Assembly (NCBI GenBank): GCA_045125935.1
Contig: JBGVNW010000041.1
Span: forward strand, 66,199-130,198
Source of the DNA: Bacilli bacterium
GTDB taxonomy: Bacteria > Bacillota_I > Bacilli_A > RF39 > UBA660
DNA: 64,000 bases
Reading direction: 5' to 3'
The position numbers and the translations under genes are program-made. A model generated the notes under the pieces. It ran no database searches. It saw only the letters and a program-made list of their open reading frames with translations, and was not told the origin of the DNA. Of this stretch, positions 57,387-64,000 are shown one piece after another. Each line of letters begins with the position of its first letter. Positions within the stretch are counted from its first letter, which is position 1.

Positions 57387-58235
57387 ATGTCAGAAAGAGA
57401 ATTAGATTCAAGTATGATTGATTATGTTGAGAATGAAACACCTAAAAATTATATAAAACAGTTACAATGGGATATGGCTATTGGTTTACAAGAAGTAGAT
57501 GATTTAAAACCTTCTAAATATTTAGAAAAGTTATTACAAGAAAATGTAACTGGTGAAAAAACTATTTATGAAGTGGAACAAGAGTTAAAACAATATTATG
57601 TCGATAAAAATACAAATGATGAAAAGATACATGATGAATATGAATGTGATCTAGTATCGACAAGAATTGTTCAATTATTAGAAGAGGATAAGTTTGAATT
57701 ATCTGTTGATTATATAAAATATGTTCATGAGTATTTATTTAGAGATGTGTATGAATTTGCAGGTGAATTTAGAAAAGTAGATTTTTCTAAATATGAAAGA
57801 ATTTTAAATAATGATTCAGTTGCGTATGGTGATTGCAGAACATTAGAAGAATCATTAGAATATGATCTTGTTTTGGAGAAAAATAGAAATTATGATGAAA
57901 TGAACATTGTAGAAGTTATTAATAATATAACTAATTTTTCTTCAAGTATATGGCAAATTCATCCTTTTAGAGAAGGTAATACTAGAACAACAGCTTTATT
58001 TATTGAAAAATATTTAATTTCTCTTGGATATAATGTAGATAATACTATGTTTAAAGAAAAATCAGTTTACTATAGAAATGCAATGGTAAGAAGTAATTAC
58101 TATAATAATTATTTAAATATAAAACAAGATAATAGTTATTTAATTAAATTTTATGAAAATTTATTGTTAGGGAAGAATAATGATTTACATTCACGAGACT
58201 TAATTGTAAAAGAATTGTTTGATGAGAGTAAATAA
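57387..58235 (+). CDS. Fic-domain protein with variant motif HPFREGNTRTTA
   Basis: Motif at 57960-57995. It deviates from HxFx(D/E)GNGRxxR at two positions (G to T, last R to A). 282 aa. Confidence 0.8.
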   Translation: MSERELDSSMIDYVENETPKNYIKQLQWDMAIGLQEVDDLKPSKYLEKLLQENVTGEKTIYEVEQELKQYYVDKNTNDEKIHDEYECDLVSTRIVQLLEEDKFELSVDYIKYVHEYLFRDVYEFAGEFRKVDFSKYERILNNDSVAYGDCRTLEESLEYDLVLEKNRNYDEMNIVEVINNITNFSSSIWQIHPFREGNTRTTALFIEKYLISLGYNVDNTMFKEKSVYYRNAMVRSNYYNNYLNIKQDNSYLIKFYENLLLGKNNDLHSRDLIVKELFDESK

Positions 58236-60106: not shown

Positions 60107-60394
60107 ATGGATGGTATTATAAGTAGATTTTATAATATTGGTAAAAGTTATATTTCTAAGAATAGTAATATAAGTTGTTTTGATTTGGATACAACTTATT
60201 TTAAGAAGTTATCTGGTAGTAATTGGGAAGAAGTATATGTAGAGTGTGCTAGAGGAAGTGATAAGAATTTTACAAAAGGCTTCTTCTCTAGATGGGATAG
60301 TCATATTAATGACTGTGAAAGAAATCGTTGTCCTAATAAGATTGTACTTAAGTCTGGTGAGTACTTAAGTGATGTGTTAGAGAAGTGTAAATAG
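60107..60394 (+). CDS. hypothetical 95-aa Cys-containing protein
   Basis: ORF divergent from kinase paralog 10 and upstream of the giant ORF. No motif recognised. Confidence 0.4.
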   Translation: MDGIISRFYNIGKSYISKNSNISCFDLDTTYFKKLSGSNWEEVYVECARGSDKNFTKGFFSRWDSHINDCERNRCPNKIVLKSGEYLSDVLEKCK

Positions 60395-60450
60395 TATATT
60401 TTAATATTGTATGCTATAATTTTTATTAGTTAAAAGAAAGGAGCAACAAG

Positions 60451-63400
60451 ATGAAGTTATTAAAAAGTTCGCATTTAGAGGAATATGTGAAAAATAATAA
60501 AAAATTAGCAGAAAGTGAATTTCCTTATATTATTGGTAGACTTTTAAAGAATACGGTTGATGGAATTAATGGTTTTGATATTCCAAGTGGAGATAATGTT
60601 ATTCAAATAGGATTTGATGGTGTAATAAAATTTACTGGAACTAATAAATATTTAGGTGACAAACCTGTTAATATTGAAATTGGAACTGATGCAGATTATA
60701 TATCTAAAGCAAATACGGATATAAAGAAACGAATTCCACGTAAAGATCAGAATTTTGTGTTTATAACGCCATTTAGATGGAATAGTAGAAAAAAATCAAA
60801 AAATGATTGGATATTAGAAAAAAAAGCATTGTATGATTGGAATGATATTAAAATAATTGATGGCTCCGTTTTAGAAGATTGGATAGAAGAAGATATATCA
60901 ACAACAAAGTATATATTAAATAAAATAAATATTGATTTAAATGATATTAGAACTATTGATGAATTAGAAAAACAATTTTCTCTTAAAACAAAGAGAAATT
61001 TGGATTTGAACTTTTTTGATTATGATGATAAAGGTTATGAAAAATTGTTGTCTGAGTTGAAAAAGGATTTTTATAATGTTGTTGCATCTACTAGAGAGGA
61101 AGGTCTTTTTGTTACATTATTTTATTTGAGAAAATTAAAAAAAACTGATGAAGTTTTAATAATTAATAGTTATTCAGCATGGCAAAATATTGTTATTAAT
61201 CAGATTTCCAATAATAATATACTGATTCCAAATTTTTATCATGAAGATGGATTGGAAGTTCCAAAAAATAATATAACTATTTTCATCCATGATAGAGAGG
61301 AACTTATTAAAAAATCTGATTATTCTATTGAACAACGCACAATTAATAATTTACACAAAGCATTAGAAAGTTATTATAAAGATGATAAACAACATATTGA
61401 ATATGATGAAATTAATACTATAATAAGAAAAAGTTTAGGCAGGTATATTCCTTTAAAAAGGGAATTATTTAAAGAGTTTATTGAGCCAAAATGGTATAAA
61501 AAAGAAAATATAAAATTATATCTTTATTTGTTTTTTATTAATGATTTTAAGACTAAAGACTTAAAAATTTTCGAAGAATTCAATGTTGATTTAGATGAAT
61601 TACAAAAAATGTTAAATGAATTAGTAAAAGAAAAAGATCCGTATATTGTTTATTATAAGTATTGGGATGAATATAAAGTTGTTGATATTTACAATGTTAT
61701 TGAATGGCTAGGTCCTTTTATCGATGAAATGTCTATTGATAATTTATGTAAAGTTGCTAGAAAAGTGTTGTTTTACTTAGAACCAAAATATTTACCTGAA
61801 AATATTGGGAAACAATATTATGTTGAAAAAACTGCAATTAGAGAATACAGCAAAGTAGTAAAAAATGGTTTGTTAAAAGGTTTAATAATTACAAAGTTAT
61901 TTTTACAACGTGAAAATAAAGTAACTTTGATAAAAAAGTTAGATGATTTGATTGATCAATATTATAGTATTATAACTACAGAAGGAATGTTTTTAAGTTT
62001 TGCCAACCTAGCAGATAAATTAGTTGAGTTTAACTATGAGAAGTTTCTGAAAAAAGTGCGTGATTCGTTAGGAAATAAAGAGTTTGAGAAAATGTTTGAT
62101 TTAACAAATAAAGATATTATTTTTTCCTCTAATGAATATTGCAGGATTATTTTTGCAATAGAAAAAGCAATACATAAAAAAGACTATATTGTTGATGCTA
62201 TAGAAACTTTGGCGCTTCTATCAGAAATGAATAATGCGAATTACAAAAATATGGGTAACACACCATTTAATACACTAAGAGATGTATTTATTGGATGGGA
62301 TAACCTTACCTGCCTAGATATGAATGAAAAAATTGTTTTGCTACAACAATTGATAAATAATCATTATGAATTAGGAAAAAAACTTATGAAATCACTTTTA
62401 CCTAGTCGAGGTGGGACGTGGTCTCCTTTACAAAAGCCAGAGTTTGATGTATTTGATGATGTAAAGCCAATCAAATTTGTAAAAGAACAAAAAGATTATT
62501 TTGAAAAATATTATTTGTTATATTTAAATAATTATGTAAATACATTAGATGATTTGGTTTGTATATATGAAGAGACTTATTTTATTGATTTTGAATGTTT
62601 TGCTGCAATAAAAGAAAAGACTATTCATTTGATTGCAAATAGTTCAGATGAAGAAAAGTATAAATTAAAAGAAGAAATTAGTGAAAAACTTAGAGGTTAT
62701 GAAAAATTTCATAATTCTGCGTGGAATTTAAGTTCAAGTGAATTAGAGTATTATACTTTTATTAAAGAACAACTTGTTTATGAAAATCCTATTTATGATT
62801 ATGTTTTTTTATATCAATGGCATATATTTCTTGATGATGTTGATATAAGTGATTTAAGAGTTAGAGCAATTTCATTATTGAATGATAATGATAATAATGA
62901 AGATTTGTTATTAGAAAAATGTGATAATAAAAATGCGCTTATATGTGATATTTATAAATATAAACATAATTGCCATCATAATATAGATTTTTTAAAAAAA
63001 TTATTTGATAAATATGGTGATTATGTTACTTCATATTTGAGAATGATATATTTAAATGAGACTGTTGAAGAAGTGATTAGTGTATTTAATAGTGATAAAT
63101 TAAATTATTTGTCATTAGAAAAACGTATCATAATATTGTCGCACATGGGATTTAATAATTTGGCTTATAATGAAATTAAGGACAGCGAAGCAGAATCATA
63201 TTATTGGAATAAGTTGAATATGTTTGATGGTGAAAGAAATGATTTTGTATATAAATTATGTTTAAAATATGGTAATTTTGATTTTTGCCTTGATATGCTT
63301 TACGAAAAGGCTGATATGTATGATGAAAAATGTGAACTGTTAGAGAAAATTAGAGATTCTAAAGTAAAGGCAAGTAAATTAGATGAATATAAAATAGAAA

Positions 63401-64000
63401 AAATATTTGAGAGTTTCTATAATTATACGAAAATTGATAATTTTGAAAGATTATCTAAATTAGAAATCTATTTTGGTCCAATATTACAAAATAGTACATA
63501 CTTTTTGTCAAAAGAAGCAAATAAATATCCTAGCATTGTTGCAGAATTAGTGGAAATAGTCTATAAAGACGAAGATGGGAATTCAAGTGATTATGTAGAA
63601 ATGGAAACAGTTGTTTCTACTTGTTTTGAAAAGTTACATAATTTAGAGATTGACTTTAATAATATCGATGCATTTAAATGGTGTGATGAATTTCTAGAAT
63701 TAATGAAAGAAAAGAAAAGAAGTCAAGTTATGTTTCATGTTTTAGGTCAATTATTGGCGAGAACTAATAATGATAAAGAAGATGGTATGTTTCCTTCTAA
63801 AATAGTTAGAAAAGTGATTGAACATTATAAATCTGATGATTTAGCAAGTTCATTTAAAATTGAAAAGTATAATCAAAGAGGTATGCATTTTATTGGTATT
63901 GGAGAAGAAGAATATTCTTTATATAAAAAGTATTCTGATTGGTCAAATAAAATGAAAATAGAATATCCTAAAACATCTAAAATTTTGAAAGACTTAGCGG
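60451..64000 (+). CDS. very large hypothetical protein (more than 1183 aa, 3' end outside window)
   Basis: ATG 60451 behind AAAGGAGC, with TAG at 60427 closing the frame upstream. I read frame 1 codon by codon to 63999 and found no stop. It is absent from the ORF track because it is open at the window edge. No Walker A motif seen. Confidence 0.85.
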   Translation, partial: MKLLKSSHLEEYVKNNKKLAESEFPYIIGRLLKNTVDGINGFDIPSGDNVIQIGFDGVIKFTGTNKYLGDKPVNIEIGTDADYISKANTDIKKRIPRKDQNFVFITPFRWNSRKKSKNDWILEKKALYDWNDIKIIDGSVLEDWIEEDISTTKYILNKINIDLNDIRTIDELEKQFSLKTKRNLDLNFFDYDDKGYEKLLSELKKDFYNVVASTREEGLFVTLFYLRKLKKTDEVLIINSYSAWQNIVINQISNNNILIPNFYHEDGLEVPKNNITIFIHDREELIKKSDYSIEQRTINNLHKALESYYKDDKQHIEYDEINTIIRKSLGRYIPLKRELFKEFIEPKWYKKENIKLYLYLFFINDFKTKDLKIFEEFNVDLDELQKMLNELVKEKDPYIVYYKYWDEYKVVDIYNVIEWLGPFIDEMSIDNLCKVARKVLFYLEPKYLPENIGKQYYVEKTAIREYSKVVKNGLLKGLIITKLFLQRENKVTLIKKLDDLIDQYYSIITTEGMFLSFANLADKLVEFNYEKFLKKVRDSLGNKEFEKMFDLTNKDIIFSSNEYCRIIFAIEKAIHKKDYIVDAIETLALLSEMNNANYKNMGNTPFNTLRDVFIGWDNLTCLDMNEKIVLLQQLINNHYELGKKLMKSLLPSRGGTWSPLQKPEFDVFDDVKPIKFVKEQKDYFEKYYLLYLNNYVNTLDDLVCIYEETYFIDFECFAAIKEKTIHLIANSSDEEKYKLKEEISEKLRGYEKFHNSAWNLSSSELEYYTFIKEQLVYENPIYDYVFLYQWHIFLDDVDISDLRVRAISLLNDNDNNEDLLLEKCDNKNALICDIYKYKHNCHHNIDFLKKLFDKYGDYVTSYLRMIYLNETVEEVISVFNSDKLNYLSLEKRIIILSHMGFNNLAYNEIKDSEAESYYWNKLNMFDGERNDFVYKLCLKYGNFDFCLDMLYEKADMYDEKCELLEKIRDSKVKASKLDEYKIEKIFESFYNYTKIDNFERLSKLEIYFGPILQNSTYFLSKEANKYPSIVAELVEIVYKDEDGNSSDYVEMETVVSTCFEKLHNLEIDFNNIDAFKWCDEFLELMKEKKRSQVMFHVLGQLLARTNNDKEDGMFPSKIVRKVIEHYKSDDLASSFKIEKYNQRGMHFIGIGEEEYSLYKKYSDWSNKMKIEYPKTSKILKDLA

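Follow-up and report, generated by a model that had tools for sequence, protein, structure and literature searches.

Our computational analysis of a 64,000-nucleotide stretch of a Bacilli bacterium genome (the window; positions 66199-130198 of a 140.7-kb contig in a 1.76 Mb assembly with 28.6% G+C) revealed at its downstream edge a gene for a 1201-aa protein, which is probably a single-chain antiviral sensor-effector resembling Avs and NLR proteins and belonging to a large undescribed family. Three parts can be recognized in its predicted structure, namely an N-terminal nuclease-fold head, a central module similar to that of STAND proteins and a C-terminal alpha-solenoid. By analogy with Avs, the solenoid would recognise a ligand specific to infection, with a phage protein as the likeliest candidate. 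Ligand binding would then free the central module to oligomerise, and oligomerisation would gather the heads, leading to cutting of DNA and abortion of the infection. The gene and its parts, as well as the kinase gene that follows it, are located as listed below, where L002 denotes the locus coordinates used for the region of the parent contig including the part beyond the window.

60437..60444, + strand: Shine-Dalgarno sequence AAAGGAGC, read from the sequence, with the ATG 6 nt downstream.
60451..64000, + strand: large gene, 1201 aa in full, with codons 1-1183 in the window; 25 full-length homologues.
60451..60930, + strand: head with a predicted restriction-endonuclease fold (PD-(D/E)xK-like), residues 1-160; AlphaFold2 (AF2), Foldseek and conservation in 95 clusters.
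60946..61350, + strand: predicted alpha/beta domain in the position of the nucleotide-binding domain (NBD) of STAND/AAA+ proteins, residues 166-300; Foldseek and motif statistics over 144 clusters.
61351..61830, + strand: predicted helical and winged-helix domains, residues 301-460, with conserved P346, W348 and D370; AF2, predicted local distance difference test (pLDDT) score of about 90.
61831..64000, + strand: predicted alpha-solenoid, residues 461-1183 (to 1201 past the window); full-length AF2 model, pLDDT 85.8.
64034-65374 in window-equivalent numbering, beyond the window (L002 9233-10573): Hanks Ser/Thr kinase gene, 446 aa, overlapping the 3' end of the large gene.

The 1201-aa open reading frame (ORF) is a genuine conserved gene. 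An earlier note on this DNA had reported a Shine-Dalgarno sequence, a start ATG at 60451 with an in-frame TAG upstream (60427-60429) and a frame free of stops as far as the window end, and all of these are present, with 1183 open codons in the window. Past the window the frame continues on the parent contig for 18 more codons to a TAA at window-equivalent 64054-64056 (L002 9253-9255), which completes the product at 1201 aa. The statement of the note that an ORF of such length is practically impossible by chance is borne out as well, since the window base composition gives a stop probability of p = 0.093 per random codon and p ~2e-51 for 1201 open codons. The DNA of the gene contains no N or ambiguous bases. 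Other metagenome assemblies, mostly of gut "Bacilli bacterium" metagenome-assembled genomes (MAGs) from goat and rabbit, carry 25 full-length homologues (1197-1210 aa, 47-85% identity), and for this reason the frame is no assembly artefact whose correction would introduce stop codons.

Structure models of the full-length protein (27 sequences, mean pLDDT 85.8) and, separately, of residues 1-455 (34 diverse sequences, pLDDT 90.5, predicted template modelling score 0.84) were built with AF2 and matched by Foldseek against PDB and a viral library. The models reproduce the compact N-terminal alpha/beta module and, after it, the helical repeats that had been described from the sequence; the repeats, estimated there at more than 1000 residues, are indeed helical but cover the ~740 C-terminal residues, preceded by the central module. 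With the full-length model Foldseek returned generic HEAT/ARM solenoids with template modelling (TM) scores below 0.2, plus SAMD9, and the function-informative matches came from the separate model of residues 1-455.

In the AF2 models the central module (residues 165-460) is composed of an alpha/beta domain, a small helical domain (HD) and a winged-helix domain (WHD), corresponding to the NBD-HD-WHD layout. The top PDB matches of the 1-455 model were the AVAST5 filament (9nc9, E 2.3e-6) and Avs3 (8dgc, E 2.1e-5), followed by SAMD9 (9zjr, E 3e-4), Avs4 (8dgf, E 4e-4), EfAvs5 (9jap, E 5e-4) and CED-4 (2a5y, E 1e-3), with the clamp loaders of the RFC type, RuvB, ORC/Cdc6 and other AAA+ proteins ranking lower; the matches in the viral library were clamp loaders and AAA+ ATPases. 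NACHT proteins, sought in the phylum for a profile-profile comparison with the NBD, were found in 0 of 299 genomes. The Walker A motif (GxxxxGK[ST] after beta1) was not found in 144 clusters of the family, and its site is occupied by A-S-T-R-E-E217 in the protein studied here and by the pattern [AG]x[ST]x[ED]E in the family, with E217 present in 97% of the clusters. The Walker B motif (hhhhD[DE] after beta3) was likewise not found in these clusters, nor was any conserved acidic residue at its site, which reads ILIP260NF here and carries the proline in 67% of them. The absence of Walker A and B motifs stated in the earlier note therefore holds, as no G/AxxxxGK[ST] stands at the nucleotide-binding position. 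Because both motifs have been lost family-wide, switching of the module would be nucleotide-independent. The description of the protein in the same note as an uncharacterised defence or sensor scaffold agrees with our interpretation as far as a defence sensor is concerned, but not with regard to a plain scaffold, since an NBD-HD-WHD-like module lies between the head and the repeats.

The core of the head has the order alpha-beta-beta-beta-alpha-beta in the AF2 model (DSSP: H17-35, E39-43, E57-61, E73-77, H83-93, E101-105), and Foldseek matched it to MspJI (prob 0.98), to a viral Mrr-like protein and to a T7 endonuclease I-like protein (prob 0.95). The conserved residues comprise GxD56G, WE76xG78, K86AxxD90xxK93R94, W110, W130, D137 and W144; across the 95 clusters that possess the head, D56 and E76 are found in 100%, K86 in 98%, D90 in 97% and R94 in 94%. 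D56 stands where beta2 begins and E76 belongs to beta3, a placement as in PD-(D/E)xK nucleases. The position +2 after E76 is G78 (89%), where these nucleases have a lysine, and the invariant K86 on the next helix may stand in for it. That the protein has no recognisable enzymatic motif, as had been claimed, is thus correct at the level of motifs only, and a predicted restriction-endonuclease fold with D56, E76 and K86 so highly conserved speaks against it at the level of the fold. The head is proposed to be the effector.

Our modularity survey, which covered the best 150 representatives of the family, showed that the N-terminal part is exchangeable. The nuclease-fold head was present in 96 of them, and in 51 the core and solenoid were joined to another N-terminal module, such as a helical module of 160 aa (31 representatives), one of 230 aa that contains a long hydrophobic stretch resembling a membrane segment (9), a serine protease of the trypsin type bearing His and GxSGSP motifs (3) and several others. 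About 25 of the 96 head-bearing representatives (e.g., P0060, P0075, P0148) possess an extra XRE-type helix-turn-helix (HTH) domain of ~90-160 aa before the head, which accounts for the names "transcriptional regulator" and "VapI antidote" in some databases. Interchangeable N-terminal effector-type domains on a conserved core are seen in Avs and NLR-like conflict proteins (PMC13581612).

The solenoid (residues 460-1201), which is proposed to be the sensor, is built of ~40 helices, and its structural matches are generic HEAT/ARM repeats only, with TM below 0.2. Regional identity is lowest, and variability hence highest, at residues 760-920, and a conserved block in its C-terminal part contains E1005, G1099, P1115, N1141xRG1144, G1151 and E1154.

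An exhaustive phmmer census against 1.84 billion cluster representatives (clusters at 50% identity) placed 2606 clusters in the family at a threshold of E<1e-3, or 1447 at the stricter E<1e-10; with few exceptions they are 1200-1360 aa long and align over their whole length. Members were found in Bacillota (Hungatella, Oscillospiraceae, Enterococcus lemanii, Selenomonas), in other bacteria (Ignavibacteria, Latescibacterota, Chloroflexus of the Chloroflexota, Desulfobacteraceae of the Desulfobacterota, Verrucomicrobiae, Gemmatimonadota, Alpha- and Gammaproteobacteria) and in the archaeal Methanomassiliicoccales and Methanosaeta. The distribution of the large gene is rare and patchy: it occurred in none of 60 sampled close relatives, 20 of which belong to the same genus, and in 5 of 399 genomes drawn from across the phylum. 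The 1201-aa protein had no match in Pfam, NCBIfam or PADLOC, and sequence and profile searches of PDB gave nothing meaningful; our literature searches found the family described nowhere, and database entries name its members "hypothetical" or after the small N-terminal HTH extension. In three loci, an Oscillospiraceae MAG (L019:6986-10768), Enterococcus lemanii (L034:6797-10776) and a Methanomassiliicoccales MAG (L026:6989-10811), two adjacent ORFs take the place of one intact family gene, and these are probably frameshifted or decaying copies; the halves of the Enterococcus gene are annotated by NCBI as two hypothetical proteins.

The Hanks kinase gene downstream starts before the large gene has ended, with an overlap of 11-23 nt, and is translationally coupled to it. 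Such an overlapping kinase was present in 8 of 9 distinct loci of the gut-Bacilli subclade, and the large proteins of these 8 loci are 47-85% identical to the one studied here. The earlier note had pointed to another kinase, the upstream "paralog 10"; the recurrent partner is instead this different kinase encoded outside the window. It matched Pfam Pkinase (E 2.7e-16) and, over the kinase core only, PADLOC PD-T4-6 (E 4.9e-16), with weaker partial matches to MAD6 and to Stk2 (E 2e-11 over 115 residues only). The Hanks motifs G36xNS, K54, E70, H151RDIKPxN158, D170xG172 and A195PE197 are invariant in the 8 orthologues, and a 150-aa C-terminal domain is conserved in all of them and unique to the subclade. 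The kinase would act together with the large protein, providing a second output or a phosphorylation switch on it; its role could be that of a second effector, of a phospho-switch on the receptor or of the principal effector.

Several observations weigh against the interpretation of the large protein as an Avs/NLR-like sensor-effector. The TM-scores of the Foldseek matches to the 1-455 model are low (0.2-0.33), as expected for flexible multidomain matches, and the assignment of the NBD is for that reason based on E-values and on the order of secondary structure elements. No sequence-profile link to STAND proteins was obtained with NACHT, NB-ARC, AAA_16, nSTAND, PADLOC AVAST I-V or bNACHT profiles, and a Pfam search with 34 relatives at E<=1 produced scattered noise only and no STAND match. 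The replacement of the canonical (D/E)xK lysine by G78 means that nuclease activity of the head is not assured. Furthermore, conservation within the close subclade is highest in the head (65% mean identity) and not in the solenoid, which fits an enzyme and is silent on sensing. As to the kinase, one close homologue (locus L009) has no Hanks kinase, and neither do distant family members; in view of the latter, the kinase is not a core component but a subclade-specific, co-inherited addition.

The kinase nevertheless gives rise to a different explanation, which we regard as unlikely, according to which the large protein is a sensor or scaffold that activates the kinase as the effector, the cell being shut down by mass phosphorylation as for Stk2, and the nuclease-fold head binds DNA or regulates without cutting. 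The overlap and co-divergence of the kinase with the large gene in 8 loci, its intact catalytic motifs, the resemblance of its core to the defence kinases PD-T4-6, Stk2 and MAD6 and the loss of the canonical nuclease lysine would all fit this explanation, as would the HipA-like kinase downstream of the large gene in the sole close locus lacking the Hanks kinase. Most of the family, including all distant members sampled, is however devoid of the kinase yet keeps D56, E76, K86, D90 and R94, which argues that the head itself would be catalytic, and the exchange of the head for a protease or transmembrane module is typical of effector positions. The HipA_C-like kinase gene in L009 (L009:11929-13131, E 1.5e-7) lies 330 nt downstream and is unlinked, and a neighbouring kinase upstream of the family gene in L019 matches Stk2 over nearly its full length (E 1e-58). 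These two genes are more simply explained as island neighbours and were not counted in favour of a general link of the family to kinases.

The genomic surroundings of the large gene are consistent with a role in defence of the Avs/NLR-like kind. As the earlier note had placed it, the gene belongs to a defence island that follows a thrS remnant and whose cargo includes Fic (PADLOC PDC-S72), AbiJ-NTD4 (PDC-S32), GIY-YIG (PDC-S14), NERD and HRDC fragments and a complete type I restriction-modification (R-M) system. Homologous loci adjoin type I R-M systems in four further cases (L003, L005, L010, L038), and in a Clostridiales MAG (JARYMI010000033.1; L040:2400-13961) a 1270-aa member is placed inside a type I R-M operon. 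The gene order there is hsdM, two unidentified ORFs, hsdS, the large gene and hsdR, with the start of the large gene overlapping the end of hsdS, an arrangement reminiscent of anticodon-nuclease genes embedded in type I R-M loci. Other neighbours of homologues are a DpnII R-M system, an Eco57I-like enzyme with a serine recombinase, a CBASS cyclase, a PDC-S25 SIR2 protein, an Argonaute-associated AlbA_2 protein, a NERD-UvrD protein and an Stk2 kinase.

This recurrent proximity to type I R-M, including the position between hsdS and hsdR, together with the similarity of the head to MspJI and Mrr-like folds and the N-terminal XRE HTH of some relatives, would also suit a restriction-type enzyme whose Mrr/MspJI-like head directly cuts DNA that is foreign or modified. 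The R-M linkage would then reflect cooperation, and the solenoid and ATPase-like module would serve DNA handling or regulation and not the sensing of phage proteins. We consider such an enzyme quite improbable, because many relatives have a protease, helical or transmembrane-like module in place of the head, which would be meaningless in a restriction enzyme, because the core is structurally closest to Avs, NLR and SAMD9 proteins, and because translocase and helicase motifs are absent.

Also to be weighed is a function outside immunity, either one of mobile elements or phages (superinfection exclusion, anti-defence, structural or scaffold) or that of a lineage-specific cellular scaffold residing in islands. 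The sole library match of the 1201-aa protein was to PHROG 18693 (E 1.3e-58), a family of unknown function, and one human-gut phage contig matches it weakly; moreover, the family has no functional annotation anywhere, and residence in islands is circumstantial. The PHROG match, taken as a sign of phage-borne relatives, also counts in favour of the sensor-effector interpretation. However, a tripartite effector/NOD-like/repeat architecture with effector swapping is a hallmark of conflict systems, of 10 directly adjacent genes sampled at distant loci 5 match PADLOC defence models, and no linkage to phage structural genes was seen in any locus examined, so that a non-immune function appears highly improbable.

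Among known systems, the part order of the Avs/NLR-like sensor-effector proposed here is that of Avs3, Avs4 and Avs5, which have a similar chain size and consist of a swappable N-terminal effector, NBD-HD-WHD and a helical-repeat sensor; Avs3 and Avs4 carry a nuclease effector head, as with the nuclease-fold head of the 1201-aa protein. Both Avs and the family described here are rare, horizontally spread and located in defence islands. In contrast to Avs, the family lacks Walker A and B in the 144 clusters as well as any match to STAND, AVAST or NACHT profiles, its solenoid is HEAT/ARM-like with generic matches, and one subclade possesses an obligate-looking kinase partner. Since Walker motifs and profile matches were looked for and not found, the large protein is outside every named Avs family. 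KpAvs8 is an Avs protein with degenerate Walker motifs, but a single member and not a whole family (PMC13581612).

Human SAMD9, which is among the top Foldseek matches of both the full-length and the N-terminal model, and SAMD9L are large STAND-type antiviral proteins with a nuclease effector, the architecture predicted here. SAMD9 and Avs9 contain AlbA_2, SIR2, a genuine P-loop and an OB-fold, and Avs9 and Avs6 contain AlbA_2/SIR2 or PNP with a true P-loop (PMC12680541). Contrary to SAMD9 and Avs9, AlbA_2, SIR2, P-loop and OB-fold were not detected in the 1201-aa protein, and identity with Avs9 or Avs6 was rejected, the protein having no AlbA_2, SIR2 or PNP domain. With Dsr1 and Dsr2 it shares the form of a large single-gene system without an active NTPase, in which a helical-repeat sensor controls, or in the present case would control, an N-terminal effector; Dsr1 is a large solenoid sensor that works without a STAND domain (PMC13581612). 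Unlike the 1201-aa protein, Dsr1 and Dsr2 have a SIR2 NADase head and no NBD-HD-WHD-like module, and no PADLOC Dsr match was obtained here.

The similarity to Stk2 and PD-T4-6 resides in the partner gene, whose Hanks kinase looks active from its motifs and matches PD-T4-6, MAD6 and Stk2; contrary to these stand-alone kinases, it is coupled to a 1201-aa NLR-like protein, and the match concerns the kinase core only. Pairs of an NLR with a kinase exist in plants, such as ZAR1 with receptor-like cytoplasmic kinase (RLCK) partners and Prf with Pto. The likeness to them, for which no homology is claimed, is that of an NLR-type receptor genetically coupled to a partner with a Ser/Thr kinase fold, the bacterial pair being, unlike the plant ones, an operon.

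The catalogues of bacterial Avs/STAND receptors were built by searches for P-loop NTPase domains, and one survey distinguished 589 STAND clades (PMC13581612). A family of more than 2,600 clusters with receptor architecture and without Walker motifs would escape surveys seeded with the P-loop. If its members are immune receptors, the repertoire of bacterial and archaeal pattern recognition would grow, the family would offer a naturally occurring way to ask whether switching of the NLR type depends on a nucleotide, and a "hypothetical protein" recurring in gut Firmicutes, Enterococcus, Selenomonas and many environmental phyla would receive an annotation. The kinase-coupled subclade would in that case connect NLR-like sensing with protein phosphorylation in a tractable operon of two genes. 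A further-reaching proposal, which we put forward only tentatively and hold to be doubtful, is that the 1201-aa protein is the founding example of a large overlooked NLR-like lineage without nucleotide binding, whose activation in gut Bacilli is gated or executed by the Hanks kinase. If the kinase has this role, the two genes would form a bacterial NLR-kinase pair with a logic analogous to that of the plant NLR/RLCK pairs.

The 95-aa Cys-containing ORF upstream (window 60107-60394) and the small upstream kinase gene of 237 aa ("paralog 10"), whose co-occurrence with the large gene the earlier note had proposed to check, were rejected as partners, as neither has a homologue in any of ~40 related loci. 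The 95-aa ORF, residues 48-93 of which match PHROG 4182 (unknown function, E 5e-14), is therefore probably separate, phage-derived cargo. Downstream of the kinase, a 208-aa ORF (L002:11040-11666, window-equivalent 65841-66467) without Pfam, NCBIfam or PADLOC match is encoded, and a 154-aa NERD ORF followed by a 106-aa HRDC ORF (L002:11863-12663, window-equivalent 66664-67464) look like the ends of a NERD-helicase-HRDC defence gene that lost its helicase core. In three distinct loci (L003:6871-7944, L010:4359-5189 and window 57387-58235) a gene of the Fic family precedes the large gene at a distance of 0.1-3 kb, directly adjoining it with a 57-nt gap in L003; a common hotspot or a loose association may lie behind this. 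In L009 a serine recombinase gene closely precedes the large gene, a sign that the latter may be carried there on a mobile element.

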